Shown here in pieces: positions 1 to 25,278 of a stretch of DNA of 25,810 nucleotides. The position numbers and the translations under genes were made by a program. Below the pieces are notes generated by a model. The model did not search any database. It had not been told where the DNA came from and worked only from the letters and a program-made list of their open reading frames with translations. This DNA is from Anaerolineae bacterium (GTDB lineage: Bacteria > Chloroflexota > Anaerolineae > S140-20), in assembly GCA_027021705.1 (NCBI GenBank), contig JALUTT010000024.1:1-25810 (forward strand). Reading direction: 5' to 3'. How positions within the stretch are numbered: position 1 is the first letter of the stretch; each line of letters begins with the position of its first letter.

Positions 1-164
1 TGCCCCACCTGGGCGTCTATCCCCGCCTTCTGACGCACCTCCCATTCCAGCCCCCCCAGGATGGCCCCCAGCCGGCCTTCCACAGCCCGCAACTCCCCGG
101 CGGTCTGTTGCCATTGAGCCCCCAGCGCCCGAAGCTGGGCCGGATCAACCCTAATGCGCACCAT
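1..164 (-). CDS. WXG100-like N-terminal domain protein, probable T7SS substrate (partial, runs off window edge; absent from ORF track)
   Basis: Manual translation from ATG at 164 (GGAGGAGGG 5 nt upstream): MVRIRVDPAQLRALGAQWQQTAGELRAVEGRLGAILGGLEWEVRQKAGIDAQVG..., open to the edge. 36/45 residues are identical to the N-terminus of 3792..5087. Overlaps the stop of 151..2061. Confidence 0.9.
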   Translation of the reverse strand, partial: MVRIRVDPAQLRALGAQWQQTAGELRAVEGRLGAILGGLEWEVRQKAGIDAQVG

Positions 165-2061
165 GGCTACCCTCCTCCCCTTTCTCGATAGCGTAGATGT
201 GCACGTCGTTTCCCATGTAGACCCGCCGAACGCCGGCACAGGTGTCAAACCAGCGCGGTTGGAGCCTGCCCCCCTTGGCCCCGATGTAGATGTGGGTGAC
301 GGATTGCTCCCGGACGAACTGCCAGAAGGTGGTGGTGCATCCTTCTATCGCCCTGGCTTGCTCGGCCACCCGCTTTACCTCCAAAATGTAGCGTTGGCCT
401 TCTGCATCTACCCTTTGCCCATAGGCAACGCCGGGGGGCAGGATGGTCGCCCGATGGCCGATCAGGGGAATCCACCACCCTCCATCGCTACCGCGATACA
501 GACCGTAGGCCCAAGGCTCGACGTTGATGAGGAATTTGGCCCCCGGCGGCACGTTCCCCGCGATCCATTCCAGAGCCTTCACGTCCTCGGCCGTCGCCAA
601 CACGGTGACCGGGTTGATGATGGAGCGGGTACCTGAGAACCCCCACGCCCCTAAAGCGGCGAGCCCGAAGCACCACAGGTACCGGGAGAGCCGAGGGGAG
701 CGGGTGATCCTGCTCACCCACCGGCGCAGCATGAACAGGCCCTCTGCCGCCAGCACGTTCTCGGCCACGAACAGGGTGATCACGAGCAGATCGGCGCGGA
801 AAGGCCGAACCTGCCACGGCCACTCGGTGCTCAGCAGGGCCAGGATCCCCACCCACACCACCAGAACCCGGCTGGGACGGCGGGCGATCAGCGATGCGCC
901 GACGGCCGGGGCCGCCAGCAGCAGGATGACCCAGTTACCGGGGTGATTCACCAAGTTCCACAGGTATTCCAGCGTCGGGAAGGCCGCCTGCCCGGTGAGC
1001 GCCCCTGCGCTCCCCCAGTGAACCCGGGCGAAGGCCGACACGTGGGGAACGACCCGGAGAAGCCAAGGAACAACCATAGCCCCCCCCAGTCCGCCCCAGG
1101 CCAGGAGTCCAAGACCCCGGTGCCACCGCCCTCTGTTCCCGCCCTCAACGGGGCCAACCAAGGCCAGCGCCAGCAGGAACCCCAGGAAATAGGCTGCTGC
1201 CAGGTAATGGACCAGCACGATCCCGCCGGTCATCAAGGCAAGTTGAAGCCCGTTTCGACGCTGATGGGGATGGCGCCAGACCGCGAGCGCCGTCGCCATC
1301 GCGATGGGGAGCAAGACCATCCCCGTCAGCAGGGTGTACCGTCCCCACGAGGCGTAGTAGGCGGGCATCTGGGAGACAAAGCCGGTCAGCACGGCCGCGG
1401 CGATGCCTACCTCGCGACGACCGCCGATCTCCGCCCCCAGGCGGTAGATGGACAGGACGACTGCCGCGTTGAGCACTTGGCCCAGGACCAGCACCGCCCG
1501 GGGCGATGGAAGGTCGGCCAACTCGGCGAAGGCGGCCGTCAACACGTGAAAACCGAAGTGGTAGTAGAACGGAACGGGCATGTAAGGCTGCCAGGTGTCG
1601 GGAAGCTGCCCCTGGTCTCGGATGATCTGGACGATCAGGGTGTGGTGCAAGGAGTCCACCCAGGCCGGCAGTGCTAGGTCTCGGACCTGGAGGAACCGCA
1701 GGGTCAGCGTGGCGACGAAGACCAGCCCCATCGCCATCACACCCGATCGGTAGCCCACCCCCTTGTGGCGCCACTGCCCGACCGGCCATCTTCTGAAGAA
1801 GGCCAGGGATCGGCCCCCAATGCCGAACCCCACGACGAGGCTCCCCAGGAGGCCGGCGACGGCCAAGTCCCTGTAGCCGATCCTGACGTGAGCGAGGGTG
1901 GCGTAGAGGGCGAGCAGGGAGATGCCGGCCACACTCAGCCCAACGCTTGTCGCCAGATCAGGCCGGTGCCTGTCGCAACGGTGGAGAGCCTCTGCGATCA
2001 CTTGACCGGGCAGCCACAGCACGGCGACGGCGGCCCCTGCGATCCGTATCCCGCTGGCCAC
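151..2061 (-). CDS. Polytopic membrane protein, GT-C-fold glycosyltransferase-like (DUF6541-like)
   Basis: 636 aa with more than 10 hydrophobic segments. Loop motif AWVDSLHH...FYYHFGFH follows an early TM, and there is a soluble C-terminal domain (EDVKALEWI...VTHIYIG). GTG start with GGAGG upstream. Function is inferred. Confidence 0.65.
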   Translation of the reverse strand: MASGIRIAGAAVAVLWLPGQVIAEALHRCDRHRPDLATSVGLSVAGISLLALYATLAHVRIGYRDLAVAGLLGSLVVGFGIGGRSLAFFRRWPVGQWRHKGVGYRSGVMAMGLVFVATLTLRFLQVRDLALPAWVDSLHHTLIVQIIRDQGQLPDTWQPYMPVPFYYHFGFHVLTAAFAELADLPSPRAVLVLGQVLNAAVVLSIYRLGAEIGGRREVGIAAAVLTGFVSQMPAYYASWGRYTLLTGMVLLPIAMATALAVWRHPHQRRNGLQLALMTGGIVLVHYLAAAYFLGFLLALALVGPVEGGNRGRWHRGLGLLAWGGLGGAMVVPWLLRVVPHVSAFARVHWGSAGALTGQAAFPTLEYLWNLVNHPGNWVILLLAAPAVGASLIARRPSRVLVVWVGILALLSTEWPWQVRPFRADLLVITLFVAENVLAAEGLFMLRRWVSRITRSPRLSRYLWCFGLAALGAWGFSGTRSIINPVTVLATAEDVKALEWIAGNVPPGAKFLINVEPWAYGLYRGSDGGWWIPLIGHRATILPPGVAYGQRVDAEGQRYILEVKRVAEQARAIEGCTTTFWQFVREQSVTHIYIGAKGGRLQPRWFDTCAGVRRVYMGNDVHIYAIEKGEEGSHGAH

Positions 2062-2067
2062 AATCCA

Positions 2068-3714
2068 CTATCCTCCCCAGGGGGGCGGCGGATAAGGGTA
2101 GGGTTCGGGTGTATCCGTGGGCTCCGGTGCAGGCCCCCCACCGCCGCCCCCCCCACCGCCGGGAAAGGGGTTGAACCAGAACATCCCCTCGGTCGAGGTC
2201 GCCAGGGGCCTCCCGCCCTGCACCACTGACACATTCCACCGCCATTCTCCGAACTTGTCTCCCGGCAGGCTGGCCGTCCATTCGGTGGTGGTGAGAAGAG
2301 GGCTCTGCACGCTGTAGCCGCTCTCCCGATGCCAGGCCAGCACTTGGTAGCTCTGTCCCGTGCCCAGCTTCCCTTCCCAGCGGAAGGTGATAGGATTCGA
2401 GTAGGTCTGTCCCTGCTCCGGGAACGTCGGGACCGGCGGGGCGGCCGATGATCCGACGGGAGCGGGTGTGCCTCCCGAAGCCGAGGACGGCGCCTTCGTC
2501 GTTGCCGTCGTGGCCTCCGTTGAGGCCGGCGTGCTGGTTGGCCGGCGCGTCGCCGTCGGCTGCGTCGTCGTCGGTGTCGGCGTCGCTGCCCTCCTGGTCA
2601 TCGTGACTCTGATCACCTCCACCGTCGGAGAGGATCCCGCGCCGGCCGGGACCTCAGGTGAGGCCGTCGCCACCGACGACGGCGAAGTAGGAGACGTTCC
2701 CGCCCGCCCCTTCCCCACCAGGATCCCCACCACCACCAAGGCCAGCACGATCAATCCCCCCACCGCCCACGCCCACGCCGGAACCGACAGGAATGCCGGC
2801 CAGGAGGCGATGGGACGCCCCAAGGGGCCATCCGGGGCCAGGGGGCGAGACCTCGGTCGGAGCCCCGCCGCTCCGATCGCCGTTCCGCCCGCAACCCCCA
2901 GCGCCTGGGCCATTGCCTCGGCGCTGTCGAACCGCTCCGACATCGGCAGCGCCAGCGCCTTCAACACCGCCGCTTCCGTCCGCCGGCCGATCCCCGGAAT
3001 CACCGCCCTAGGCGGGACGAAGCTCTTGGGATCCGCCATCCGCTGCGTCGCCGTCGGCGGGGCCTGTCCCGTCAGGGCGTGGTAGAGGGTCGCCCCCAGG
3101 CTGTAGAGATCACTGCGGGGATCGGTGTGCCCCACCCCCAAGTCGTACTGCTCCGGCGGCGCGTACTCCGGCGTGCCCATCCCCCGCATCACCGTCCCCG
3201 TGTAAGGGTCTCGGGGATCCCACAGCTTCACCAACCCGAAGTCCACCAGCACCGCCCGTCCGTCCCGCTGTAGGATCACGTTCTGGGGCTTCACGTCCCG
3301 GTGCACCACACCCGCTCGGTGACAGTAGGCCAGGGCGTCCAGCAACTGCCCCGCCCAGACCAAGACCTCTGCCTCCGGCAGCGGTCCCTCCCGGGCGATC
3401 CGCTCCGCCAGGCTCTCTCCCTCCACCAGGTCCATCACCAAGTAAGCGTTTCCTCCTTCCTCGAAGGAGTCGGTAACGCGGACCAAGTGGGGATGGTTCA
3501 ACCGGGCCAGGACGATGGCCTCCCGGCGGAACTGAAGGCGCAGCTCTTCCAAAGTGTGCTCCTCCAACCCCGGCTGGGGCCGCATCTCTTTGAGGGCCAC
3601 GGGGACCTCCAGCCGGGCGTCCCAGGCCCTGTAGACGGCTCCCATCCCCCCTTCTTCCAATAGGTCCTTCACGCGATAGCGGTGCTGCAACACCTGTCCG
3701 CTCTGGAGTGCCAT
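2068..3714 (-). CDS. Membrane-anchored Hanks-type Ser/Thr protein kinase with Thr/Pro-rich linker and small extracellular beta-rich domain
   Basis: Start reassigned to MALQSGQ (GAGGAG upstream; the track extension overlaps the upstream gene). Motifs EGGMGAVY, VALKE, HRDVKPQN, DFG, GTPEYAPPEQ. TM WAWAVGGLIVLALVVVGILVG; tail of Gly9 then PEPYPYPPPPWGG. Confidence 0.92.
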   Translation of the reverse strand: MALQSGQVLQHRYRVKDLLEEGGMGAVYRAWDARLEVPVALKEMRPQPGLEEHTLEELRLQFRREAIVLARLNHPHLVRVTDSFEEGGNAYLVMDLVEGESLAERIAREGPLPEAEVLVWAGQLLDALAYCHRAGVVHRDVKPQNVILQRDGRAVLVDFGLVKLWDPRDPYTGTVMRGMGTPEYAPPEQYDLGVGHTDPRSDLYSLGATLYHALTGQAPPTATQRMADPKSFVPPRAVIPGIGRRTEAAVLKALALPMSERFDSAEAMAQALGVAGGTAIGAAGLRPRSRPLAPDGPLGRPIASWPAFLSVPAWAWAVGGLIVLALVVVGILVGKGRAGTSPTSPSSVATASPEVPAGAGSSPTVEVIRVTMTRRAATPTPTTTQPTATRRPTSTPASTEATTATTKAPSSASGGTPAPVGSSAAPPVPTFPEQGQTYSNPITFRWEGKLGTGQSYQVLAWHRESGYSVQSPLLTTTEWTASLPGDKFGEWRWNVSVVQGGRPLATSTEGMFWFNPFPGGGGGGGGGPAPEPTDTPEPYPYPPPPWGG

Positions 3715-3791: not shown

Positions 3792-5087
3792 CTACGTCGG
3801 ACGGATGACGATGAAGTTGTTCTTGGGAACTCCCTTGCCAAAATCGGCCCCCCAAGAGGCGCTGAAGGTCTCCCAAGAGCAGGTGTAGGAGCGCCCTTCC
3901 CAAGGGTCGTTGATCCGCACCTGACCGTCGGGCGAGATACCGGTGACCACGACGGCGTGGGTGTACCCCGTCGTCTTCAGCCCCAGCTTCACAATGGCGA
4001 TGACCGGCCCTTCGGCTACTGCCTTCCTCAATGCCTCCAAGTTGGCATTGGTGTGCACCTCTGTCTTCTGGTAGCCCAAGCTCTTCACCTCGTCGAAGAC
4101 CTCGTCCACCCTCATCCCTGCGGTGGGATTGAACACTCCCTGCCCCACGTTGCGGTCCAGCAACTCCTGGGCCGACATCGTCTTGTTGGCCGGGTCCTTG
4201 GCGTGCCAGTAATCCAGGACCATCTGGGTGACTGTCGGCACGCAGCCGTATGCTGTAGGCTTCCCTTTGTATTGGAGGCCCTGCTGGCTTCTCAGCGGAA
4301 CGTCGAACCACCACCGATCCTGGTCGGTCTTAGACGGGGGGGCTGTTGCGCCCGACTCTGGCTTCGCCGTCGCCTCCGGCTTTGCCTCTTGGGCGGGGGC
4401 AGGAGCAGGCTGGGCGGGCGGCTTTCGATCCGCCGGCTCCGTCTCCCTCTCGGTTCCGCCCTCCTTCCCAGGGAAGCGCTGCCTCAACAGCTCGGCCAGC
4501 CGCCCCCGGGCCGGCTGAGGGACAGGCGTCGGCGGGGCCAACTCGAGGTCGGTCTTCCACCCCTTCCCTCGCAGCCAGTTCCAAACCCGCTCCTTCAAGG
4601 CGCGTAGGTCCGGCGGGATCCCAGGCCAGGGCAACAGGCTGCCCACGCCGATGAGCGACGCACCCCCGGCCACCGGCAGCGAGATCGCCCGAATCCGGGG
4701 CGGTGATCCGATGACACTGCCCAGCCCCCACGCAGCATCGACCTGATCCCCGGGGATCCTCCACCAGGAGGGCAGATCCCGCAGTCCGGTGTAGAAGGAA
4801 TCCCCGATCCGGCTCACCTGCCCGACCCCCTGTTGGTCCGCCTCCTCGAAGGCCTGGGCTTTGGTCACCAGGTAGCGGGCCAGGGTCCCGGCCTGCTCGG
4901 CCAGTGCCTGGGCCTGGCTGCGAGCCTGAGCCACCAGCCCTTCCACGTTGGCCTCCTGGCGCACCTCCCAGTCTAACCCTCCCAGGATGGTTCCCAGGCG
5001 ACCTTCTACCGCCTGTAGCTCTCCCGCGACTTGCTGCCATCGGGTTCCCAGCATCCGGAGCTGTGCCGGATCTACCTGAATGCGCAT
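3792..5087 (-). CDS. WXG100-like N-terminus fused to C39-like (papain-fold) cysteine peptidase; probable T7SS effector
   Basis: Start MRIQVDPAQL (GAGGAGG upstream). Helical N-terminus with LDWEV and AFEEAD, then a Pro/Ala linker. C-terminal VPLRSQ..YGCVPT..YTHAVVVTG..INDPW gives the Q/C/H/D catalytic set. Immediately downstream of essC. Confidence 0.85.
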   Translation of the reverse strand: MRIQVDPAQLRMLGTRWQQVAGELQAVEGRLGTILGGLDWEVRQEANVEGLVAQARSQAQALAEQAGTLARYLVTKAQAFEEADQQGVGQVSRIGDSFYTGLRDLPSWWRIPGDQVDAAWGLGSVIGSPPRIRAISLPVAGGASLIGVGSLLPWPGIPPDLRALKERVWNWLRGKGWKTDLELAPPTPVPQPARGRLAELLRQRFPGKEGGTERETEPADRKPPAQPAPAPAQEAKPEATAKPESGATAPPSKTDQDRWWFDVPLRSQQGLQYKGKPTAYGCVPTVTQMVLDYWHAKDPANKTMSAQELLDRNVGQGVFNPTAGMRVDEVFDEVKSLGYQKTEVHTNANLEALRKAVAEGPVIAIVKLGLKTTGYTHAVVVTGISPDGQVRINDPWEGRSYTCSWETFSASWGADFGKGVPKNNFIVIRPT

Positions 5088-5119
5088 TCGATCCCTCCTC
5101 ACCACAGCCCAACCCCGGC

Positions 5120-8100
5120 TCAGGCGACTATGCCCACCGCCTTGCGAAGGGCGCGGGCCATCGCGCCGGCCGAGTCGTAGCGTTCGTCGGGCTCCTTAGC
5201 CATGGCTTTCAGGATTACCGCCTCCACCTCCTCGGGAATGGCCGGGTTGATCTGCCGGGGCCGAGGGGGAGGCTCGTGGATGTGCTTGACGGCGATCCCC
5301 ACCGGCGTGTCGGCTTCGTAGGGCAGCCGGCCGGTGGCCATCTCGTAGAGGATCACCCCCAGCGAGTAGATGTCGGTGCGGTGGTCCACCGGCTTCTTCC
5401 CCAATCCCTGCTCCGGCGATGCATAGGCCAGGGTGCCCAGGAAGGCATCAGACCGTGTCAGCTTCTCTTGGTCAGCCTCTATCACCAGCTTGGCCAACCC
5501 GAAGTCGGTCAGCAGCACCCAATCCCCCTCGTCCAGCAGCACGTTGGAGGGCTTCACGTCCCGGTGGATCACGCCTCGCCTGTGGGCATGGTCCAGGGCT
5601 GCTGCGATCTGACCGACGAAGCGGACTGCCTGGGCGAGGTCCATAGGCCGCCCCATCCGCTCCCGCAGCGTCTCCCCCCTCACGTACTTCATCACGATGT
5701 AGCTGAGGTCCCGCTCCTGACCGAAGTCTATGATGGGCAGGATGTTGGGATGGCTCAGCCGGGCGATGGCCCGGGCTTCCCGTTCGAACCGTTTGGTGAA
5801 GTTGGGCAAGAGAGAGTACTCGGGCAGGAGCACCTTGATGGCCAGGTCCCGGTCCAGGACGGGATCGTAGGCCCGGAAGACGATGGCCATCCCCCCCCGA
5901 CCGATCTCCTCATCAATCCGATACCGCCCCAACCGTTCCCCGATGAGGCCGCGGAGCAGGTCCCGGTAGCTGCTGGGGGGATGGCGGGTTGGGAAGGGGC
6001 GCTTCTTCTCGCCGGACAACTCCTGCTTCGGAGGGGCGACCTGGGTTTTAGGGAAGGGAGAGGGAGGCGTCCTTTCCCGTTCCCACGGGCGGGTCACCCG
6101 CTCCTGGGTTTCCCGGCCGGGTGGGGAGACCTCCTGCCGACGTCCTTCCTCGTCGGGTCGGGCAGCGGTTTTCACCTCACCCTTACCGCGCCGGATGATG
6201 AGGTCTCCCCATGCCTTCAGGGTCATGTCTCCAACGTGGCCGGTGGCGGCCTTGATCCGCCGGTAGCGCCTCCGCTGCGCATAGTAGCCCTGTCCCGGCG
6301 GCAGGAGCTGCCCGGCTTCCCCCATCGGCAAGCGCAGGTTGAAGAGTTGCAGGTCGTTGTGTTCGCTGCTGCCCAGCAGGAAGCCCGTGGGCATCGCCTT
6401 GAGCGCCTTCACCCAGTCTTCGTAGCTGGAGGAGAGGGCGGAGGCGACACCGGCCAGCAGTAGGTGGAAGCCCAGCCCCCGCCCCTGACGGATCAGTTTC
6501 TTCAGCCGCTCTTTGGTACCGCCCTGGACGTCGGCATTGAAGGTCTCGAAATCGCTCACGGCCAACACCAGCGCCGGATAGCCGGCTAACAGGCCCCGCT
6601 TCTCCTCCCCGGACAGCAGCCCGCCGGCCCGCCGACGGGCTTCCTCCAGCGCCTGCCGCCGCTCCTCCAGCGACCGCTCGATCTCGGCCAGGGCCTCGCC
6701 CAACCGATCGTCGTCGGTGATGTAGGCCTGCACGTGGGGCAGCCCTTGCAAGGGCAACAGGTCCATCCCTTGGAAATCGGCCAGGTAGAGGCGCAACCGC
6801 TCCGGTGGGAAGCGCTCCGCCAGGGCCAGGAGCCAGGTCTGCAGGAAGGTCGTCTTGCCGCTCTGGATAGGGCCGGCGATGAGGAAGTGAGGGCCGTCGG
6901 CCAAATCCACCTCGATCGGCTCCAAGTCGTCCACATCCAGCCCTACCGGCACGGCCAAGGCCGTCGCCTCGGCCGGGGAGAGCCATCCGCTGCCGGGGGG
7001 CAGGAGCTCCGCCAGCGCCACCTCCTTGGGCAGCACGGGGATGGGGGTGGCCACCGGCCCTTTCCAAGCTTGGGCCATCCGCTCGATGAGCCCCTTGAGG
7101 GCTTCGGTACGCCGGGCCTCCGTATCCCCGGCCACCGGGAGCGCCGTCTGGAACTCCAGCGGCGGCTTGCCCTTCACCAACCCTCGCCCCGGCACGGCTG
7201 CCGGCACCAGTCCGCCCGTCCGTCCCACCGCCATACCGTAGTCCCCCGGATCGGCCAGTTGCAGGGCCACGGCCAGGGTGATGTTGTTGCTGATCTTGGT
7301 CTTGACCAGGGAGGGGCTGTTGGCCGTGAGGACCAGGTGTACCCCCAAGCTGCCTCCCTCACGGGTGATCTGGGCCAACATCTCCAGCTCCTCCTCCGCT
7401 CCGGGGGTCGCAAAGGCCGTGTAGTTGTCCAGGACGACCACGAGGGCCGGCATCGGGTCGCCGGTGGTCTCCCGGTACGCCGTCAGGGTGCCCACGCCCG
7501 CCCGGGCGAACTGCTCCTTGCGGCGGTCCATCTCCCGCAGGAGGAAGCGGAAGAGGCGCTGTAGCTTCTCCTCCTCATCCATCAGCACCACGCCCCCCAC
7601 GTGGGGGAGGGGAGCGAAGAGGGTGAGCAGTCGTCCGCCGAAGTCGAGCAGGTAGAGGTGCACCTCTTGGGGCGAATGGGTCCGGGCCAGCGCGGTGATC
7701 AGCGTCTGGAGGAAGGTCGTCTTGCCCGTGCCCGGTGCCCCGTAGACGGCCAGGTGGCCCTCCTCCCCCAGGGGGAGCCGCAGCGGTCTCTGCTGTTGGT
7801 TGGCCGGATCGTCCACCAGCCCCACGACCGGCTCCAACCAGGCGGTAGCCGGCTGCCAGGTCTGCCCATCCCATCCCTCGGACGGGCGCACCTCGGCCAG
7901 CACCTCCTCCAGGGTGATCCGCTCCGGCAGTGGAGGGAGCCACGGGCCCGGCAGGGCGGTGATCCCCGCCCGCTTGGCCACCTCTCGGATGTAGGCGACG
8001 AGGGCTTGCAACTGGGTTGTCCTTTCCTGGAACGCCCGCGGCCGGGGGGAGCGGCCCAGGGGACGCCGCTCCCCTTCCAAGGTCACCTCGACGATCTCGT

Positions 8101-10321: not shown

Positions 10322-10591
10322 TTACCCCTGATCGGCAGCCTCGAAGCGGGCAGCGATGGCGTCCAGTTGCTGGGCAATGCCGTTGAGCAGCTCCACGAAC
10401 TGGTTCATCGTCGTCCGCCACTGCTGGAACTCCTGGTAGAAGCGCTGCTTGGTCAAGCCCTCCCACTCCGGCTCCAGGCTGCTGATGGTGCTCTGGAGTC
10501 GGCTGACCATCTCCTGGCTCTGACCACTGGCTTGCCGGAACTGTTGGCCTACCTGCCGTACCTGCTCGGGGGTAATCTTGATGCGTGTCAT
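10322..10591 (-). CDS. WXG100 family (EsxA/YukE-like) type VII secretion protein
   Basis: 89 aa from ATG at 10591 (AGGAGG upstream): MTRIKITPEQV...central EWEG...RFEAADQG. Helix-turn-helix hairpin pattern. Confidence 0.96.
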   Translation of the reverse strand: MTRIKITPEQVRQVGQQFRQASGQSQEMVSRLQSTISSLEPEWEGLTKQRFYQEFQQWRTTMNQFVELLNGIAQQLDAIAARFEAADQG

Positions 10592-10849
10592 AACCAAACC
10601 TCCTGTTCAGACTTCAGATTTTCAGCCGATGGGCGATCTCCTTCCGGCGGGCCTGGGCCCTGCCGAGCCGACCGGTGCCGGACCGGTCGGAAGTCAACCC
10701 ACAAACCCTTAATCCCGAACGATGACGATGATCCCTTTTGAGCGTCGCATCACCTCCTTCACTTGTCGGTTTTCACCCCTTTGCTTCCCCATCCTCCTGG
10801 TCCCACGCCCGACGGCCGCCGGGCCACCGGGACCTTTCAATCTGCTCTT

Positions 10850-17545: not shown

Positions 17546-18361
17546 TCACGCCGCCGGAAGTGGCTCCGGCAGCACCCGGTCCATCACCCGCCGCAGCGCC
17601 TCTCGGGCCTCTCCGGCGGTGCAGGGGATGACCTCCACCCAATCCTCTCCCCGGCGGGTGAAGGCCCTCAGTCGCCACAGGCCGTTCTCCCCCTCCAATA
17701 GGCCCATTCCGGCTACCTCCCAGGTGACCTCCCGGCGGGCCAGGGCCACCAGCGCACCGTTGCGGGTCGGGCGGGCCAGCGTTTCCGTCAGTGCGACCGC
17801 CGTCTCGCTCCCCAGGCCGGCCCGCTCTAGGGCGGCTTGAGCTGCTTCAGGGCCTGAGTCCTCGATCAACGTTCGGGCCTGGGTCAACTCCGTTCCCCGG
17901 AGCCTGCCGCTTCCCCCCGGTGCCGCCGGCTGGTCGTCCAAGCCCAGCATCGCCGTCACCCGCTCGAAGACGGAGGCAGGGTCCTCCAGGGCGGTCAGCC
18001 GGTAGCCCTCGGGCTCCGGCGCTTGCTCGACGGCCAGGTGGCGGGTTAGGTGGAAATAGCGCACCGTTGGCGCCCCGCCGGCGGGCGTCACCGTCAGGAG
18101 GAAGGAAGCCTCCGGGAAGGCGCAGGTGCCCACCAGGGTAGCTACGGCCACGTCCATCACGATGCTCCCGTCGGGCTGCACCTCGATAAAACGACGGGCG
18201 GCCAAGGCTTCTCGAGCCTGCTGCCACGCGGCTTCGATCTCTTCGGCCAACCAGCCCCAAAAGGGGTCCTCGAGGCCCAACAGCATATCGGCCCCCAGCA
18301 AGCCGGCCAGGAAGACCATCTCCTGGGCCGAACACGTTATGGTAGGAACATCGTTGTCCAT
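17546..18361 (-). CDS. Hypothetical protein, probable T7SS chaperone/accessory factor (EsaE/DUF5081- or EspG-like)
   Basis: 271 aa soluble protein. N-terminus SAQEMVFLAGLLG..LLGLEDPF..AREALAARRFI resembles, by recollection, EsaE/EspG-type N-termini. Lies between a WXG gene and yukD. The ORF is secure; the family is tentative. Confidence 0.6.
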   Translation of the reverse strand: MDNDVPTITCSAQEMVFLAGLLGADMLLGLEDPFWGWLAEEIEAAWQQAREALAARRFIEVQPDGSIVMDVAVATLVGTCAFPEASFLLTVTPAGGAPTVRYFHLTRHLAVEQAPEPEGYRLTALEDPASVFERVTAMLGLDDQPAAPGGSGRLRGTELTQARTLIEDSGPEAAQAALERAGLGSETAVALTETLARPTRNGALVALARREVTWEVAGMGLLEGENGLWRLRAFTRRGEDWVEVIPCTAGEAREALRRVMDRVLPEPLPAA

Positions 18362-18470: not shown

Positions 18471-19031
18471 TCAGGAACCCCGGGGCCGGCGTCCGGGAAG
18501 CTCGGCGGCCCGCTCCACTCGCCCCTGCCACCGGGGGGCGATCGGGCGCAGCGGGCGGATCCCCACCCCAGAGCTGAGAGGCCGGACGGCAAGAGGCACG
18601 ACGATGGCCGTCACCCGCCGGTCCTGCTGCCCGTCCAGACCCAGCCATCGCTCGACCAGGGCGTGAGGGAAACGCGCCTGCGGTCGCAAAGCCTCGAAGC
18701 GGAGGGCCCACGCTCGTTGTACCTGGACGAAGGCGTCGGCGACCTGTCCGAGGGCGACCATACCAGCCCGGTCGGCCTCCTCGAAGCGGGCTGCTCGCTC
18801 AAGGAGGAAACGGGCCAGAGCATCCGCCCGGTCGGCCAGCGTCCGCAGGCGGGCCCGAGCCTGCCACCACCGGGCCTCCACGTCGGCCCGGTAGGCTCCC
18901 TCCCACTCCTCCGCGCTCAGCCGGTTCCATGCTCCGAGGAGACGGCTTTCCAAGGCGTAGAGCCCGTTGGCCGCCTCGGAGAGACTCCGGGCCGCCTCCC
19001 GCAGGTGATCGGGGTCTACCCGAATGCGCAT
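18471..19031 (-). CDS. WXG100-domain protein with ~90-aa C-terminal extension
   Basis: Start MRIRVDPDHL (GGAGAGG upstream); EEWEG motif; RFEEAD; 186 aa. Confidence 0.85.
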   Translation of the reverse strand: MRIRVDPDHLREAARSLSEAANGLYALESRLLGAWNRLSAEEWEGAYRADVEARWWQARARLRTLADRADALARFLLERAARFEEADRAGMVALGQVADAFVQVQRAWALRFEALRPQARFPHALVERWLGLDGQQDRRVTAIVVPLAVRPLSSGVGIRPLRPIAPRWQGRVERAAELPGRRPRGS

Positions 19032-19113: not shown

Positions 19114-20673
19114 TCAGGGTGTCGGTGCCGACGTCAGGACCACCGTCGGCGTCGGCGTCCAGGTCCCCGTCACGGTGGGGGTGATCGTCGGTGTCGGCGT
19201 CCAGGTCCCCGTCACGGTGGGGGTGATCGTCGGCGTCAGGGCCTGGGTTTCCGTCACGATGGGGGTGGCCGTCGGCACCAGGCCGGGCGGCCCGGTGGGC
19301 ATCACCGCAGGGGTGACGGTCGCAAAAGGCGTGGCCGTCGGTGTCACCATCGGGGCCACCGTGCTGGCCTTGGGCGGGAATCCGCCGGCAGGACCCGGGG
19401 GAGGCGAGCCCAAGGGGGCAGTCCTGGGGACCGTCTCCGTCGGCGGCCCCGGTGTGCCCCTCAGGCCCCTTCCCGGCTCCCCCGGCGGAGGCGGAACCTG
19501 ACCTGGCCTTGAGGGGGTGTTCCGATCCCAGACCGGTCCCCTTGTGGTCGGCGTCGCACCAAAGAAGAGGTTGTGAAGGGGGCCTCGTTGGGGAACGATG
19601 AGCTCGGCTGCGATGATGCCCATCAGAACGACTGCGGCCAGGGCGACGGCTACTCCCTTCAGCCACACCGACTCCTTCGCCGGAGGGGGGATGTCTTTCT
19701 TCAACCGGGGGCTCACCTGCCGAGTCGTCTCCGCCCCGGAAGGACGACGTTGCGGCACGGCGCCAGGCACCGATCTGGTCCGGCTGGGGACCGATGATGG
19801 CTCGATCCAAACCTCTAGGAAGGCGATGTCATCGCTGGTGGCCGCGCTGCCGGCCTCCTCGATCATCCTCTGCAAGGTCTGACGGGATAAGTCCTTCTCC
19901 CGTCCATCCAGAGCTGCCAGCCCGTCGGTGTAGGCCATCAGCCAGGCCAAACGTTGCTCCCCATCCCTCAGAGGGGCGACGAAACAGTGGGGCCTTCCTC
20001 CCACAGGGCCTCGGTGGGAGGACCAGCGCCGGGCGATGTCAAAGTTACCTCCCAGGGGCACCGGTTGTTTCCGGTCGTTCCACAATCGCAGACGCGAATC
20101 CCCCATCCAGGCCAGCACGATCCGTCCTTCCGGCAGGCCCTCCCGGGGCAGGTCTATGCGTCCACAGGCGAAGGTGCTCTCGCTCCCCAGCCTGCGTTTC
20201 TCCTCCAGCACCTCGCGCAACAAGGGCGGGAGGTCGGACGGCAGGGGATGGCGCTCTACCAAGCTCTTGGCCGGCTCCACAATCTCCCACAGGTAATCAT
20301 CCAAGGCGGCGGCGATGGTCTCCCGGTCCATCGTCTCGGGCAGGCGATCTCTCAACCACGCCACCAGGCTGTCCCCTAGGTAGCGGGATGCCAGGTCACC
20401 GTAGAAGGACTGGCCCACCCCGTCACACAAGGCGAAGACGAAGCTTCCTTCCCCTTCGCAAAAGGCCAGGTAATCCTGTCCTCGGTCGCCGGCTGCCCGC
20501 GTCTCGGCCGCACGGGCATAGGCGTACAGGAGGGGAAACTGCCCCCTCTCGAACTTCGCCTGCGTCTCTCGGTCTTGGGGAAGCCGTACTTCCTGACATC
20601 GAGATGGGGCCTCTCCCGTCTTTTTGGGGACCGAAAGCCGACGGGTGACAGGGCGATGCGGCCTCTCGCTCAC
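19114..20673 (-). CDS. PP2C-family protein phosphatase with TM and Pro/Thr-rich extracellular tail
   Basis: Start reassigned to GTG 20673 (AAAGGAGG 5 nt upstream, just after the vWA stop). Motifs GQD, ALCDGVG, GSESTF, WMGDS, YTDGL, SDDIA. TM VAVALAAVVLMGIIAAELIV. Confidence 0.88.
   Translation of the reverse strand: MSERPHRPVTRRLSVPKKTGEAPSRCQEVRLPQDRETQAKFERGQFPLLYAYARAAETRAAGDRGQDYLAFCEGEGSFVFALCDGVGQSFYGDLASRYLGDSLVAWLRDRLPETMDRETIAAALDDYLWEIVEPAKSLVERHPLPSDLPPLLREVLEEKRRLGSESTFACGRIDLPREGLPEGRIVLAWMGDSRLRLWNDRKQPVPLGGNFDIARRWSSHRGPVGGRPHCFVAPLRDGEQRLAWLMAYTDGLAALDGREKDLSRQTLQRMIEEAGSAATSDDIAFLEVWIEPSSVPSRTRSVPGAVPQRRPSGAETTRQVSPRLKKDIPPPAKESVWLKGVAVALAAVVLMGIIAAELIVPQRGPLHNLFFGATPTTRGPVWDRNTPSRPGQVPPPPGEPGRGLRGTPGPPTETVPRTAPLGSPPPGPAGGFPPKASTVAPMVTPTATPFATVTPAVMPTGPPGLVPTATPIVTETQALTPTITPTVTGTWTPTPTITPTVTGTWTPTPTVVLTSAPTP
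19151..19234 (-). repeat. In-frame 42-bp tandem duplication in the PP2C tail
   Basis: gtcggcgtccaggtccccgtcacggtgggggtgatcgtcgg(t/c) twice; encodes TPTITPTVTGTWTP repeats. Confidence 0.85.
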
Positions 20674-20690: not shown

Positions 20691-21446
20691 TCAGCGGGCC
20701 GACATCCCGGTGGAGGTGGACATCTGGAACCCCATCGCCACCAACTCCGGGCTCGTCCCCGGCAGGAGCATCAGCGCCCTCGGATCTAGGCGGTAGCCCA
20801 TCTCCCGCATGATCTGCTGATAGCTGGCCGGCAGCGGTGAGGAGATCGCCCGGAGCTTGCGAGCATAGTCGCTGGCAAGCTTCGTCTCCGGCAGGATGCC
20901 CGGCCATCGGTGCGGGTCCGTGATCGGCTCGGGGAGGATCTCATCGGAGATGAAGATGTTTTCCACCAGGACGTGACCGTCGGGGACCGCCATCCGCATA
21001 ATGCGCTTTACGATGGGCTCAGGGTCCTCCCCCGTGTACTCGCCGTCGGTGATGTGGCAGACCAGGGGGGCCGGGCAGTGGCGCAAGTTGGGCAGCTCGT
21101 CCCGTAGGAGCTTCTCGACCTGGGCAAAGGCTCTGGCAGTATCGGTGGTGCGCAGCAGACGGAGCTCCGGCGCTCCCAGGCGGGCGACCCGATCCACCGG
21201 CTTGATCCCACCCAGCAGGTCGTACACGTGGTCGCTGTAGGCGAACAGGGCCAGGCGGTAGCGCGGTGAGATGCGTCCTCCCTTGGTCGAGCGGAAAACC
21301 ATCTGGCGCAGGGAGGCTTGGAGCGCTTCCATCACCACGTCAATGCGCCGTTTGCCCCCCAACGGCCTATTCATCGAAGCGCTCACATCCAGCAGGTAGA
21401 TGATGAGGGCCGGCGTCTTGCTGGTTGCTAGAGTCTCGTAGGCCAT
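20691..21446 (-). CDS. von Willebrand factor A domain protein (TerY-like)
   Basis: Start MAYETLATSKTP; MIDAS motif LLDVSAS, T in TTDT, HITDGE. Directly upstream of the PP2C gene. Confidence 0.9.
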   Translation of the reverse strand: MAYETLATSKTPALIIYLLDVSASMNRPLGGKRRIDVVMEALQASLRQMVFRSTKGGRISPRYRLALFAYSDHVYDLLGGIKPVDRVARLGAPELRLLRTTDTARAFAQVEKLLRDELPNLRHCPAPLVCHITDGEYTGEDPEPIVKRIMRMAVPDGHVLVENIFISDEILPEPITDPHRWPGILPETKLASDYARKLRAISSPLPASYQQIMREMGYRLDPRALMLLPGTSPELVAMGFQMSTSTGMSAR

Positions 21447-21460
21447 AGTTCTTCCCCCTT

Positions 21461-21919
21461 TCACATCACCGTCTCCCCCACTGCTTCAACCAGGGGCTGG
21501 ATCCACGTCGGCGTCGTCTCCAACGGTTGGACCGCGAGCGGCAGGGGGAGGGCGGTGACCCGGGTCCCTTCCAGCAGCGACGCTGCCTCCGGGACCACGG
21601 CCACCCTTCCCCCCCGCCGCTCAACCCCCTCCACCAGGTCTTCGAAACGCGGATCCGCCCGCCAGGCGGCGATGGCCGCCTCGCCACCCGGGATGATCAA
21701 CACCCCCACCGAGGGCAACGACCGTAACACCTCGCTCAACGAAGTGTCCGGCACGATGACCACCCCGTGCATCCCGCGAATCCCCCGCCGCTTTAACCCC
21801 ACCGTTGTCAGGGGTAGTCCTGCTCCCCGCAGCCCGCTGATCAGCGTTGTAACTTGGACCTCATCGAACCCATCGGCCAGAAGGAGCAGAAACCCTCTGG
21901 GACGATCTGATGCCTTCAT
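21461..21919 (-). CDS. DJ-1/PfpI-fold protein lacking the catalytic Cys; first gene of the cluster
   Basis: LLLADGFDE..GMHGVVIVPD..LIIPGG pattern; no cysteine in 152 aa; AAGGTGAGGGGG RBS. Confidence 0.8.
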   Translation of the reverse strand: MKASDRPRGFLLLLADGFDEVQVTTLISGLRGAGLPLTTVGLKRRGIRGMHGVVIVPDTSLSEVLRSLPSVGVLIIPGGEAAIAAWRADPRFEDLVEGVERRGGRVAVVPEAASLLEGTRVTALPLPLAVQPLETTPTWIQPLVEAVGETVM

Positions 21920-22286: not shown

Positions 22287-23771
22287 ATGATGCCGTCTAT
22301 GCCGGACACCTTTCCCGACCTTATCCGTGGGGCTCTGCGGCAATGGGGGGATCTCCAGCCCGATCTTACCGGCTGGAATCGCTACCTGAAGATCAGCGCC
22401 TTCGGGGCCACCGGCCCCCATCCCCCTCCGGCCATCCTGGCCCGAGCGGTCCGGGAGTGGATCTACGAGGGCCTCAAAGCGCTGGAAACCGAGGATCCTC
22501 AAGCGGCCCAACTGCTGACCTGGCGCTTCCTCGATGAAGAGAGCGTCTCTCAGGTCGCCCACAGGGCCCACCTGAGCCCTTCCCAAGTGATGCATCGGCA
22601 GCGGATGGCCATCAGAGCCCTGGCCCAGGTGATGTGGCGGGGTGAGTTGGCCCTGCGGCGGCAACGGATGGCCCACATCCAGGCTCGGCTGGAGACGCCG
22701 TACCCCTCTCACCTCTTCGGCGTGGCCGATAAACAGCATGAACTCCTTGATAGTCTCTCCGATCACCGTTCTCGTTGGGTGATCGTCCTAGACGGTATCG
22801 GCGGCATCGGCAAGACCGCGCTGGCCGACTGGGCCGTTCGCCAGGTGATCACCGCTCCCTTCTACGCGGACATCGCTTGGATCAGTGCCCGACAGGAGGT
22901 CTTCACCCTGTGGAGCGGGCTGAGCGTCCGGCCTGCCTGTCCGGCCCTCACCTTGGAGGGATTCCTGGATGCCCTGATTGCCCAACTGGATCTGTCGGAC
23001 CTGCGCCCTCTCTCTCCGACCCGCAAGCTCGACGAGGTTCGCGCTCTCCTCAAGGAGCAACCCTACCTGATCGTGGTGGACAACCTGGAAACGGTTGCCG
23101 ATTATCAGGCCCTTGTACCCCACTTGCTCGACATGGCGACTCCCACCCGCTTTCTCCTTACCAGCCGGTACAGCCTGCGGGCCTATCCCGGCGTTTACAG
23201 CATCACCCTTCAGGAGCTTTCCTGGCCCGACAGCCTGGAGTTGATGCGCCACGAGGCCCACGAACGCGGCATCCATCTGCTGGGCGAAGCCTCGGAGGAA
23301 GCCCTCTCCCAAATCTACCGGGTCGTTGGAGGCAACCCTCTGGCCCTCAAACTGGTCGTCGGCCAGATCGGCGTCTTCGCCCTGCCAACCATCCTGGAGA
23401 ACTTGCGTCAAGCCCGAGGACGTCGCATTGAGGAGATCTACCGCTACATCTACTGGCGAAGCTGGTATGCTCTCAGCGACGCGGCCCGCCGGGTCCTGTT
23501 GAGCATGCCCCTGGTCTCCAGCCACGGAGGGACGCTGGAGCAGATCGCCGCCAGCAGCGAACTGCCCATCTCCCAGGTTGTGGATGCCATCGAGGAGCTG
23601 GTGCGCCTCTCGCTGGTTCTCCAAGTGGGCGATCTTCGGGAGCAGCGCTACACCATCCATCAGCTCACCGAGACCTTCCTGATGCGCGAGGTGGTGAAAT
23701 GGCAACAGGCATCGTCGGACCCAGCTCTCACCCCACCGTCTGGCGCACGTACTTCTGCCGGGCCGTCGTAA
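22287..23771 (+). CDS. STAND NTPase transcriptional regulator: sigma70 region-4-like HTH + NB-ARC + winged helix
   Basis: LLTWRFLDEESVSQVAHRAHLSPSQV (HTH); Walker A GIGGIGKT; Walker B LIVVDNLE; LLTSR; GNPLAL (GxP); YTIHQL (MHD-like). Confidence 0.9.
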   Translation: MMPSMPDTFPDLIRGALRQWGDLQPDLTGWNRYLKISAFGATGPHPPPAILARAVREWIYEGLKALETEDPQAAQLLTWRFLDEESVSQVAHRAHLSPSQVMHRQRMAIRALAQVMWRGELALRRQRMAHIQARLETPYPSHLFGVADKQHELLDSLSDHRSRWVIVLDGIGGIGKTALADWAVRQVITAPFYADIAWISARQEVFTLWSGLSVRPACPALTLEGFLDALIAQLDLSDLRPLSPTRKLDEVRALLKEQPYLIVVDNLETVADYQALVPHLLDMATPTRFLLTSRYSLRAYPGVYSITLQELSWPDSLELMRHEAHERGIHLLGEASEEALSQIYRVVGGNPLALKLVVGQIGVFALPTILENLRQARGRRIEEIYRYIYWRSWYALSDAARRVLLSMPLVSSHGGTLEQIAASSELPISQVVDAIEELVRLSLVLQVGDLREQRYTIHQLTETFLMREVVKWQQASSDPALTPPSGARTSAGPS

Positions 23772-24916
23772 ACAACGTCCAGTACTGGCTTGACCGGATC
23801 CAGCACCGATCCTACCCTGTCCCGGATCGGGAGTGGCCCAACGTCCAGAAAGCCGTCGCCGCTGCCCTGGAGATCGAAGAGGCCTGGCCCACCGGAGTCA
23901 GGCTGGCCCTGGCCCTCCGCGCCGAGGTGAAGCTGCGACAGGGCGCCTTGTGGACTACCTGGCGCGGCTATCTAGAGCGCATTGTGGAACGCGGAAGCCA
24001 ACAAGCGGACAGTGACCTGGTGGCCGAGGCGTTGCTCCAACTGGGGGAGTTGGAACAGCAGCAAGGGGCGTGGGAAGAGGCGGAAAGGCACTACCGGAGG
24101 GCTCAGACCCTTTTCCAGGTGCTCCGCAAAGCCTCCCGCGAGGGGGAAGCCCTCGTCAACCTGGCCTACCTGTATGCTTTCCAGGATCGCTTGGAAGAAG
24201 CCATTGCCTGTTGTCAACAAGCCGTGGCTTGCTTCCGGTGCTCAGACGATGCTCGCGGTCTCTCCATCGCCCACAACACCTGGGGATGCATCTACAACCG
24301 GCAGGCTCGATGGGGCCTGGCTCTCGAACATCTAACCCAATCCCTGAACGCGGCGCGTCGTAGCGGGGACCGGCTCCAGGAGGCCCGGGTGTGGCAGAAC
24401 ATCGGTGTTGTCTACGGACAGCAGGGGCAGCGCGATCAAGCCCTGGCCTACCTTCAGACGGCCGCCGGCGCCTACGCAGTGGCCGGTGCGCCGGCCTACC
24501 TGGCGAGTGCTCTGGTGGGCATCGGGGTGATCCACTACAAAGAGGGCCGCTGGGATCTGGCGCGACGGGCCTACCACCTGGCCGAATCGCTCCTCGACCA
24601 ACAGCCCGTCCTGCTGGAGCAAGCGCAACTGGCCAACAACCTGGGGCTCCTCTACCGGGAGATGGGGCGGGAACTCCAGGCTGAAGCTTACTTTGGCCGA
24701 GCGGTTCAGCTCTGGCGACGACTCGACAGCCATCTGGGAACCGCCCGCAGCTTGCTCAACCTGGCCCGCCTCTACCGCCGCTATGGGCGGGAGGCCGATG
24801 CTCACCATGCCCTGGCACAAGCCCAGGAGCACCTGGATGCCTGTCCCGCCACACCAGCCCGAGAAGCGTTACGACAGCAGATTCTGGCAGAGCTGACCGT
24901 CATAGGGGAACTGTAG
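23699..24916 (+). CDS. Tetratricopeptide repeat protein (probable sensor partner of the NB-ARC protein)
   Basis: About 7 TPR-like units (AEALLQLG..WEEAERHY, ARVWQNIGVVY, AQLANNLGLLY). GAGGTGG upstream of the ATG. Overlaps the NB-ARC gene end by 73 nt. Confidence 0.88.
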   Translation: MATGIVGPSSHPTVWRTYFCRAVVNNVQYWLDRIQHRSYPVPDREWPNVQKAVAAALEIEEAWPTGVRLALALRAEVKLRQGALWTTWRGYLERIVERGSQQADSDLVAEALLQLGELEQQQGAWEEAERHYRRAQTLFQVLRKASREGEALVNLAYLYAFQDRLEEAIACCQQAVACFRCSDDARGLSIAHNTWGCIYNRQARWGLALEHLTQSLNAARRSGDRLQEARVWQNIGVVYGQQGQRDQALAYLQTAAGAYAVAGAPAYLASALVGIGVIHYKEGRWDLARRAYHLAESLLDQQPVLLEQAQLANNLGLLYREMGRELQAEAYFGRAVQLWRRLDSHLGTARSLLNLARLYRRYGREADAHHALAQAQEHLDACPATPAREALRQQILAELTVIGEL

Positions 24917-25029
24917 GAGATGAGGGATGAGGCACCGGGGGAACAGGGGAGCTGCCGACCGCCGACCGGCAGCGGCCGGCCATCAAGAGAAGGCCGCCTG
25001 GTGATCGCCCACAGGATGTGGGTGATACC

Positions 25030-25067
25030 AAAAAACCGGGGGCAGGGCAAGGAAGCCCTACCCCCGG
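25030..25067 (-). terminator. Intrinsic terminator of the small peptide gene
   Basis: Stem ccgggggcagggc / gccctacccccgg, preceded on + by A6 (a U6 tail on the minus strand); 13 nt after the stop. Confidence 0.8.
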
Positions 25068-25080
25068 CCCGTTGAGGTGG

Positions 25081-25278
25081 CTAGCACCCTCCCTGGGTCG
25101 GCCACTCACACTCGTCAGGGCTGAGCAACACCCCCGTGTCGAAGGGCAGCCACATCGCCACCTCCCACGCCGGCCCCGGGTGGTGGGCCTCCGTCGTTGT
25201 CCCCGGCACCAGCAGCGGCCCCACCAGCGCGAAGGCCACCAGCACCAACAGCAGCAGGATGAACCCCTTTCTCAGCAT
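25081..25278 (-). CDS. Small secreted peptide (65 aa) with signal peptide and C-terminal Cys pair
   Basis: GGAGGTG RBS. MLRKGFILLLLVLVAFALVGPLLVPGTTTEA-HHPG...DECEWPTQGGC. Has its own terminator. Confidence 0.75.
   Translation of the reverse strand: MLRKGFILLLLVLVAFALVGPLLVPGTTTEAHHPGPAWEVAMWLPFDTGVLLSPDECEWPTQGGC

Follow-up and report, generated by a model that had tools for sequence, protein, structure and literature searches.

Among the type VII secretion systems (T7SS), those of the b type are made up of EsxA, EsaA, EsaB/YukD, EssA, EssB/YukC and EssC/YukB (PMC10765036). A further type, T7SSc, was described by Garrett, Higginson & Palmer (2024, Microlife 5:uqae013; PMC11217815). Its core, as given there, comprises the WXG100 protein TscA, the YukD-like TscB, the EssC-type ATPase TscC, which is devoid of FHA domains, the EspG-like TscG, and three signalling proteins, namely TscD, a membrane-bound Ser/Thr kinase that has kept its active site and shares the topology of EssB without sequence identity to it, TscE, a cytoplasmic protein with an N-terminal vWA domain, and TscF, a cytoplasmic phosphatase of the PPM family. 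According to the same paper, no further orthologues of T7SSa or T7SSb parts were found in the host genomes, the system is reported, on the basis of RefSeq, from Bacillota only, and its control by phosphorylation is proposed with type VI secretion as a precedent (the Discussion cites the threonine phosphorylation that controls type VI secretion in Agrobacterium). Here we describe a gene cluster found in an Anaerolineae bacterium of the phylum Chloroflexota, on contig JALUTT010000024.1 (C24 below), the whole of which, 25,810 bp, is referred to as the window; it belongs to a metagenome-assembled genome (MAG) of 183 contigs and 5.19 Mb, 94.9% complete. The parts were called by listing of open reading frames (ORFs), translation and Pfam/NCBIfam scans. 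We hold with good confidence that the cluster is a T7SSc of Anaerolineae, phospho-gated secretion included; taken separately, its identity as T7SSc is very likely, while the gating mechanism is only slightly favoured.

The cluster consists of fifteen tightly spaced co-directional genes on the minus strand (positions 21919 to 1), and they include the complete set of seven published core parts. TscA (10322-10597) is a canonical WXG100 protein (WXG100 82.6 bits, TIGR03930 84.3 bits), TscB (17034-17528) is YukD-like with a ubiquitin fold (YukD 36.1 bits, cut-off 27), and TscC (5120-10237, 1705 aa) is an EssC-type ATPase (TIGR03928 1266 bits, cut-off 778). TscG (17546-18361, 271 aa), for which an Atlas comparison had supplied a lead, was recognized by structure: a Foldseek search of the PDB with its AlphaFold2 model (pLDDT 92.9) gave EspG1, EspG3 or EspG5 chains in each of its 15 best listed rows (ranks 1-17), with E-values of 3.4e-16 to 3.3e-12 and TM-scores of 0.62-0.72, and the row following the EspG chains had an E-value of 8.7e-4 and a TM-score of 0.15. 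The signalling proteins TscD (13125-17009, 1294 aa), TscE (20691-21464) and TscF (19114-20673) complete the set. The EssC of the window is the sole EssC of the assembly, the WXG100 matches of the genome are confined to this contig, and its YukD match is the single one above the cut-off in the genome. The original prediction, made from the letters of this DNA, had recognized a co-directional cluster with an EssC-like ATPase, a YukD-like protein, a chaperone-like protein and four WXG-type proteins, all of which was borne out by the scans, the WXG-type proteins being TscA, a second WXG100-like protein (29.6 bits) and two weaker WXG-like N-termini. It had also held that the locus fits neither T7SSa nor T7SSb, and this, too, stands. 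No match at E<=1 was obtained in the whole genome for EssB/YukC (PF10140), for the N-terminus of EsaA (TIGR03929), for EssA (PF10661) or for EccB; EccD and EccE yielded sub-threshold noise only; the best subtilase of the genome scored 259 bits with the model of the mycosin MycP (cut-off 278.75), and no subtilase is encoded on C24; and no FHA domain was found in residues 1-446 of TscC at E<=1. Since the genome is a MAG of 94.9% completeness, these parts should be regarded as not found rather than as proven absent. It is the presence of all seven core parts together with the failure to find the parts specific to T7SSa and T7SSb that leads us to the T7SSc assignment.

In several respects the locus resembles T7SSb, namely in the EssC-type motor (TIGR03928 is its best NCBIfam model), in the single WXG100 core protein, in the free YukD-like protein and in a partner that spans the membrane once and has a kinase fold on its cytoplasmic side. 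It differs from T7SSb in the EssB, EsaA and EssA not found in the genome, in the EssC without FHA domains, and in the position of this EssC in a separate, well-supported clade. The latter is seen in a tree of 58 EssC rows and 1327 columns, rooted on nine EssB-linked (T7SSb) EssCs; the rows taken from the search for EssC relatives entered it with residues 1-1400 only, and three proteins with N-terminal fusions (see below) are thereby short of about 300 C-terminal residues. The EssC of the window falls in a 16-row clade of Chloroflexota type (support 99), which joins six rows of Symbiobacteriaceae and Bacillota MAGs (support 100); the sister group of this joint clade, itself with a support of 97, contains the 12 named Bacillota rows, and both together have a support of 100 and exclude the EssB-linked and the FHA-bearing clostridial EssCs. 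Loci bearing the TscD-TscE-TscF triad are found on both sides of the split between the window and the Bacillota rows.

The gene neighbourhood of EssC was compared in 105 loci, of which 20 surround EssC matches in genomes of the class, 80 come from metagenomes and five from named Bacillota; the window proteins served as queries against them in tblastn and iterated profile searches, and the metagenome loci were retrieved with an alignment of close EssCs. (A contig search that used the whole EssC-kinase fusion as query gave EssC in five of 79 loci, the rest being mostly ordinary kinases.) The counts, which are descriptive, divide at 40% identity to the EssC of the window: a TscD-type kinase adjoins EssC in 14 of the 32 loci at or above this value and in none of the 73 below it, a vWA protein in 9/32 vs 1/73, a PP2C in 6/32 vs 1/73, and a protein of the TscG type (271 aa in the window) in 12/32 vs 4/73. 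The lone vWA/PP2C exception has an EssC of 39.9% identity. When only loci with at least 6 kb of flanking sequence are taken, the figures are 9/17 for the kinase, 7/17 for the vWA and 5/17 for the PP2C, vs 0/55 in the other group, and the class-level EssC loci of other lineages are devoid of TscD, TscE and TscF. EssB, searched for with Macrococcus EssB as the seed (YukC 258 bits), was found in 13 of the 105 loci, in every one of them with an EssC at most 35.4% identical to that of the window. Two loci, both on long contigs, present the system as a compact set between unrelated flanks. The first, L178, contains EssC, EspG-like, WXG-like and WXG100 proteins, a kinase with a transmembrane helix, vWA and PP2C; the second, L200 (37% G+C), contains vWA, PP2C, YukD, EssC, WXG100 and a kinase with a transmembrane helix, homologues of TscB to TscF being common to it and to the window. 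The nearest relatives of the L200 EssC belong to Bacillus fengqiuensis (67%), the B. cereus group (49-50%), Brevibacillus (46-49%), Aneurinibacillus and Paenibacillus, that is, to the taxa named for T7SSc by Garrett et al. (PMC11217815). The original prediction had made its case dependent on the signalling genes being kept next to essC in relatives; kinase, PP2C and vWA genes are indeed conserved there. In the class sample of 401 Chloroflexota genomes, an EssC-like match at E<=1e-100 was found in 38 genomes, and the TscD kinase at E<=1e-30 in 34 (15 of 218 genera, the window genome included).

Three kinase domains are encoded in the window, as had been predicted, though it had gone unstated that one of them is fused to EssC: they are the C-terminus of TscC, the receptor-type protein at 2068-3714 and the N-terminus of TscD. 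The last is nearly invisible to Pfam (Pkinase E 0.34). TscD starts with a kinase fold (nt 16080-17009), followed by TPR-like helices (about 15312-15560), a transmembrane helix (15129-15197, aa 605-627), a linker rich in Pro and Thr, and 13 WD40 repeats (13134-14723). An exhaustive search with residues 1-330 retrieved 1434 representative proteins at E<=1e-3, 939 of them at E<=1e-30, and among the 150 matches listed all begin within the first 71 residues of proteins that are 404-1571 residues long. Across 40 aligned TscD sequences, K54, H154, D156, N161 and D182 do not vary; as a hidden Markov model alignment to TP53RK shows, they can be equated with the catalytic Lys, the Asp of HxD, the Asn and the Asp of the DFG type. 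A profile search of PDB sequences gave weak matches to TP53RK/Bud32 and PknB only. The AlphaFold2 model of the domain (pLDDT 91.1) aligned with protein kinases at a TM-score of about 0.5 in Foldseek and at Z 17.5-19.3 in VIA-align (PknB: Z 18.0, root-mean-square deviation 3.6, 247 residues), and hhalign of the 40 TscD kinase domains against Hanks kinases gave a probability of 98.9% (E 3.4e-17). The invariant residues, the modelled kinase fold, the match to the Hanks profile and the transmembrane helix with an ectodomain provide us grounds to suggest that TscD is probably an active receptor kinase with an EssB-like topology (kinase fold, transmembrane helix, ectodomain) and without detectable EssB ancestry. 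Homology of TscD to EssB was considered and rejected: hhalign against 13 EssB sequences gave a probability of 0.1%, and only the analogy in topology was kept. No EssB chain was present among the 50 rows each listed by Foldseek and VIA-align for the TscD model, which speaks neither way as to the fold. The predicted replacement of the accessory membrane parts holds in the topological sense only, no sequence relation of TscD to EssB having been detected. The ectodomains vary widely among the TscD homologues, being helical in locus L157, for example.

The likeness in topology gives rise to an alternative, according to which the role of TscD beside the motor is chiefly structural, like that of the pseudokinase EssB, so that the triad would control assembly and the ectodomain would anchor in the wall, no sensing being involved. 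In the compact loci TscD is the sole membrane protein besides EssC, as such a role would have it, and the YukD protein of T7SSb promotes the association of EssC with the pseudokinase (bioRxiv 10.1101/2025.01.24.634720). However, unlike a pseudokinase, TscD keeps its catalytic Lys, Asp, Asn and Asp in all 40 sequences, an intact PPM phosphatase travels with it, and a sequence relation to EssB is lacking, which makes us regard the structural role as the less likely of the two, though worth keeping in view. The prediction of a complex between residues 1-610 of TscD and TscB returned a score of 0.00, that is, no answer, and speaks neither for nor against binding. The active receptor kinase, then, is the role that we assign to TscD below. 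Two side observations concern the kinases and ectodomains of the window. The receptor-type Hanks Ser/Thr kinase at 2068-3714 (minus strand, Pkinase 149 bits) has one transmembrane helix and a linker rich in Pro and Thr, and its C-terminal domain is small; a homologue 57.6% identical to it lies about 6 kb from EssC in locus L158. The WD40 arrays of TscD (13140-14710) and of the second WD40 protein (11632-12365) consist of 126-bp tandem repeats, 12.5 copies with 83% and 5.8 copies with 87% matches, respectively; the near identity of the repeats suggests a recent expansion or diversification of these presumed ligand-binding propellers.

TscE is a cytoplasmic TerY-like vWA protein without a transmembrane helix; it matches the TerY model of PADLOC (E 1.4e-18), and the residues D26, S28 and S30 of its metal ion-dependent adhesion site (MIDAS, DxSxS) are invariant in 11 sequences. 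Homologues 56-77% identical to TscE adjoin EssC in related loci, and 1029 relatives were found in the database at E<=1e-10, the few named ones among the best 120 being from Anaerolineae or Chloroflexia. TscF is composed of a PPM/PP2C phosphatase domain, a transmembrane helix and a Pro/Thr-rich tail; its start is uncertain, the GTG at 20673 being the first start codon past the stop of the vWA gene. The PPM Asp motifs (D36, D53-G54, D161, D219-G220 and D250-D251) are invariant in eight TscF sequences. With the catalytic and MIDAS positions invariant in this way, the original prediction of a PP2C and a vWA protein is upheld in spite of Pfam scores that are slightly too low (see below).

A TerY-like vWA, a PP2C and a Ser/Thr kinase in one operon are also the composition of the TerY-P triads, and TscE fits the TerY model, so one may ask whether the signalling genes are a stress or anti-phage module of the TerY-P type that merely neighbours a minimal WXG100/EssC cassette, or shares a mobile island with it, and has no part in controlling secretion. 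TerY-P triads act as stand-alone defence systems (PMC11090510) and were noted to adjoin WXG100/FtsK-like operons (Anantharaman et al. 2012, as cited in PMC11090510); a switch that senses metal and works by phosphorylation has also been proposed for them (Anantharaman et al. 2012; Gao et al. 2020; both cited in the same paper). TscD, too, gives a match to the STK_OB model, though a weak one (E 3.7e-5) lying inside the kinase core (aa 108-222). Yet the C-terminal zinc ribbon or OB fold of the TerY-P kinases is missing from TscD, which runs into TPR-like helices, the transmembrane helix and the WD40 repeats and is thus a membrane kinase of the receptor type with an ectodomain; none of the PADLOC models is matched by TscF; the triad tracks one secretion ATPase lineage over two phyla and is absent from the 55 well-flanked loci of other lineages; and kinases are fused onto the motor itself. 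Such a chance neighbourhood is therefore quite improbable in our opinion, and we continue to treat the triad as part of the T7SSc.

A number of points weigh against the assignment as a whole or limit its reach. For any T7SSc, the secretion, the phosphorylation and its targets are all inferred, the type having been defined by comparative genomics in Bacillota. The membership of our locus rests on gene content and on the named neighbours in the tree rather than on shared accessions: the tree was built without the T7SSc accessions of PMC11217815 and without T7SSa EccC, by FastTree only, and its root is an assumption. The synteny counts should be taken as a description and not as a test, since the 40% line was set after the table had been seen and several of the loci are near kin. 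The triad was seen in only part of the close loci, many of which lie on short contigs; locus L182 has none of TscD, TscE and TscF within 10 kb on each side, and locus L111 of Paenibacillus turpanensis (NZ_WTLI01000017.1), the EssC of which falls in the clade of named Bacillota T7SSc, has no TscB, TscD, TscE or TscF within 10 kb when the L200 proteins serve as queries. The Pfam scores of TscE (VWA_2 23.9 bits, cut-off 27) and of TscF (PP2C_2 23.1 bits, cut-off 24) are narrowly below the curated cut-offs. Finally, EssC is missing from the other three genomes of the family/order (the order is represented by four genomes), which are 64-91% complete, and the locus would thus be patchy in its distribution and possibly mobile.

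The most peculiar part of the cluster is the motor. Residues 1-1340 of TscC comprise two transmembrane helices and three FtsK/SpoIIIE domains; then, after a linker of about 95 residues, the protein ends with a Hanks Ser/Thr kinase (aa 1439-1689, nt 5171-5923; Pkinase 153 bits, PknB-like NF033483 358 bits) that has the GRGGM, AIKV, HRD and DFG motifs. Among the 120 best EssC relatives, six contain a Pkinase domain. A C-terminal kinase is shared by the window protein, by P0002 (64% identical over 100% coverage, kinase at aa 1370-1616) and by the partial P0094, while an N-terminal kinase is present in P0006, P0007, P0058 and a 1691-codon ORF of locus L190. As the kinase-ATPase fusions lie on three separate branches of the EssC tree, fusion must have arisen repeatedly. 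In a fragmented MAG, and with kinase genes so frequently adjoining essC, one might suspect that an assembly error or a frameshift has joined two adjacent genes; this is hardly credible for the window, where the frame is open across 1705 codons, the same C-terminal fusion recurs in P0002 and in the partial P0094, which are from differing sources, and the kinase is found at the opposite end in four further proteins. We therefore take the fusion as genuine. Two observations on EssC relatives may be added: P0110 (50% identity) carries an N-terminal ADP-ribosylglycohydrolase (aa 9-283) at the position occupied by the kinase in others, and in several Anaerolineae genomes (G210, G380, G185, G354, G367 and others) the open frames that contain EssC-like matches are of double the normal size, at about 2830-3020 residues.

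The ubiquitin-like subunit is unusual as well. YukD proteins of other subtypes, about 85 residues long, end directly after the ubiquitin fold, whereas TscB carries an 80-residue C-terminal extension that ends in EGYVWRQLD. A similar end, EGYIWKRID, terminates a protein with four transmembrane helices encoded in the same operon (10850-11542, minus strand; acidic tail, found by translation and motif scan). In six-frame ORFs of at least 60 codons, the C-terminal motif [FY]xW[KRE]x[ILVA][DE] occurs exactly twice among 43,317 ORFs of the genome, namely in these two proteins. Versions of it are present in the TscB homologues of five further loci, and a sixth (L208) keeps the Trp and the acidic end only, so that the Trp is invariant in 7/7 TscB sequences compared, which are all the sequences on which the motif rests. 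The TscB tails (17034-17300) also share a mid-tail element, GP[VT]xGW[RK]xL.

As to the possible cargo, the gene at 3792-5105 (minus strand) encodes an effector-like protein with a WXG-like N-terminal hairpin (TIGR03930 E 1.9e-4, below the cut-off) and a C-terminal papain-like cysteine-peptidase domain (Peptidase_C39_2 54.2 bits, C70 40.3 bits), the last 40 residues of which give a weak match to the CdiA toxin chain 8ssm_B (E 0.0028). Its homologues were found in loci L190, L170 and L192. The gene that starts at 164 and is cut by the end of the contig (1-164, minus strand, recognized by translation) is a paralogue of the WXG-like N-terminus of this protein and represents the start of a second effector-like gene. 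The WXG100-like protein of 186 residues with a C-terminal extension (18471-19031, minus strand; WXG100 29.6 bits, cut-off 27.3; TIGR03930 E 1.3e-8) may be a partner or a substrate.

Two more contigs, with many genes for kinases, PP2Cs, vWA and FHA proteins, probably carry the continuation of the locus. C24, C65 and C30 are linked by exact end overlaps of 127 nt, which is the overlap length of the assembler, and the breaks fall within paralogous domains. On C65 the second effector is completed and a TscD paralogue begins; C30 (L254) contains the TscD-paralogue kinase, with a C-terminal FHA domain instead of the membrane anchor (2-1576), and also three Hanks kinases, two PP2Cs, a Big_7 protein and a vWA-Big_7-FHA protein (6182-8149). 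Of the 19 Hanks-kinase matches of the genome, five are on C24 or C30. The kinase fused to the motor, taken together with the additional kinase, PP2C, vWA and FHA genes of the adjoining contigs, points to an unusually elaborate phospho-switch. A working analogy may be drawn with the phospho-control of type VI secretion, known in Pseudomonas under the names PpkA, PppA and Fha1: in both cases a membrane Ser/Thr kinase and a PP2C are encoded in the secretion cluster and FHA proteins nearby (here on C30), though the secretion machines are unrelated.

The following scheme can be proposed. Phosphorylation of Ser/Thr residues would gate secretion post-translationally. Judging by the logic of the domains, TscD should sense an extracellular cue by means of its lineage-specific ectodomain (WD40 in the window) and phosphorylate parts of the machine or its substrates, TscF should remove the phospho-mark, and the TerY-like TscE, with its intact MIDAS, could act as a metal-dependent adaptor. 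The fused Hanks kinase would put a second kinase at the C-terminal end of the motor, which is the end where ESX substrates dock, and the FHA proteins of C30 could read the phospho-marks. The machine itself may be expected to operate as in T7SSa and T7SSb (PMC10765036; bioRxiv 10.1101/2025.01.24.634720), that is, TscC hexamers would form the membrane motor and channel, TscA would be the obligatory co-secreted hairpin, TscG would chaperone for export the WXG-headed effectors, one of them the papain-like C39_2/C70 peptidase, and TscB would bridge the motor and the kinase-fold membrane partner.

A bolder reading combines four suppositions, and we consider it doubtful when all of them are taken jointly. 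It holds that in Chloroflexota the T7SSc motor became a signalling enzyme through three or more fusions of a Hanks kinase to one or the other end of TscC; that the N-terminal kinase takes the place of the degenerate FHA domains on the EssC of T7SSb; that the [FY]xW[KRE]x[ILVA][DE] tail is a docking tag (or one similar to the secretion signal WxxxD/E) that recruits TscB and, in the window, the four-helix membrane protein too; and that, given an active TscD kinase, a PP2C and FHA proteins in one island, T7SSc would have kept in working order, across two phyla, an ancestral phospho-switch of which T7SSb has only relics, namely the pseudokinase EssB and a pair of phospho-blind FHA domains.

Whatever the fate of this reading, the machine of the window is a known one in a variant form and opens no new category; it is a useful extension of the 2024 paper rather than a surprise. 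With the Bacillota T7SSc it shares the seven core parts, the ATPase without FHA domains and the lack of T7SSa/b accessory parts. It differs from them in the host, a member of Chloroflexota, in the kinase fused to TscC, in the WD40 propellers of the TscD ectodomain, in TscF, which is membrane-anchored and not cytoplasmic, in the TscB tail motif and in the extra kinases, PP2Cs, vWA and FHA proteins of the adjoining contigs. The Chloroflexota hosts, the kinase-ATPase fusions, the C-terminal tail motif and the continuation of the locus go beyond the main text of PMC11217815, in which the tail motif is unmentioned and the strings 'Chloroflex', 'fusion', 'WD40', 'TerY' and 'metagenom' do not occur, and no paper on T7SSc in Chloroflexota or on an EssC-kinase fusion was found in a literature search that was short on subscription journals. 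That T7SSc is common in Chloroflexota means a wider host range and a likely older age of the system or, otherwise, its transfer between phyla. The natural fusions of kinase and motor are evidence of the 'Rosetta-stone' kind for Ser/Thr phosphorylation acting directly on a secretion ATPase, and they are ready-made constructs for biochemistry. The conserved tail of TscB offers a testable handle on the recruitment of the ubiquitin-like subunit.

The remaining genes of the window are not conserved beside EssC in the related loci. The operon begins with a gene of a DJ-1/PfpI-like protein without Cys (21461-21919, minus strand; PF01965 60.1 bits), the stop of which overlaps the start of tscE (translational coupling). 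Between tscD and the gene of the four-helix protein lies that of a second WD40 membrane protein (11617-12951, minus strand; WD40 315 bits), with four transmembrane helices and about seven WD40 repeats, and near the distal end of the operon there is a 10-helix membrane protein similar to glycosyltransferases of the DUF6541/GT-C type (151-2061, minus strand), for which we have leads only: an Atlas feature score of 0.99 and TM-scores of 0.86-0.87 to structures of DUF6541 clusters. On the plus strand, divergently from the operon, there are an NB-ARC ORF (22287-23771; 37.4 bits) and a TPR ORF (23699-24916; TPR_12 129 bits). The two WD40 membrane proteins, the Cys-less DJ-1 and the divergent pair had thus been correctly described in the original prediction, except that the helix-turn-helix it assigned to this pair is a weak call (Sigma70_r4 19.9 bits, below the cut-off).

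From these genes the original prediction had built a distinct and possibly undescribed T7SS subtype wired to WD40 sensors, DJ-1 and a divergent STAND/TPR regulator. The genes are adjacent, DJ-1 is coupled to tscE, and a promoter-like site precedes the NB-ARC gene in the divergent gap. The subtype, however, has been published, and the window matches T7SSc part for part (PMC11217815). The DJ-1, four-helix, glycosyltransferase-like and NB-ARC proteins have no match in any of the 105 related loci, the non-repeat N-terminal part of the second WD40 protein has no tblastn match there, and the TPR protein has one weak match (L166), by tblastn only. TscD ectodomains, moreover, differ as widely as noted above (lengths of 404-1571 among the matches listed, helical in L157). 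The WD40 sensors, like DJ-1 and the STAND/TPR pair, are peculiar to this genome. This version is largely refuted by synteny, and we give it very little credence. Accordingly, the STAND/TPR, DJ-1, four-helix and GT-C genes were rejected as conserved parts of the system; the NB-ARC and TPR ORFs are its neighbours, and a link between them and secretion is not supported.

Some minor observations may be of use. The NB-ARC and TPR ORFs overlap by 73 nt (23699-23771) in different frames and may represent one STAND gene (NB-ARC-TPR) that a frameshift or a fault of assembly has divided. The GT-C/DUF6541 gene shares the operon with three proteins that have Pro/Thr-rich linkers, namely TscF (19114-19700), the receptor kinase (2068-2700) and TscD (14730-15100), and O-glycosylation of these linkers by the GT-C-like protein is a possibility, although the gene is not conserved in the related loci. 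No RNA family of Rfam was found within the window. The G+C content of C24, counted per kb, is about 60-73%. Finally, a plus-strand ORF at 25018-25560 ends in a translation with repeated ...IRSIRSIRSIRS... (about 25500-25560), which suggests a short tandem DNA repeat near the end of the contig.

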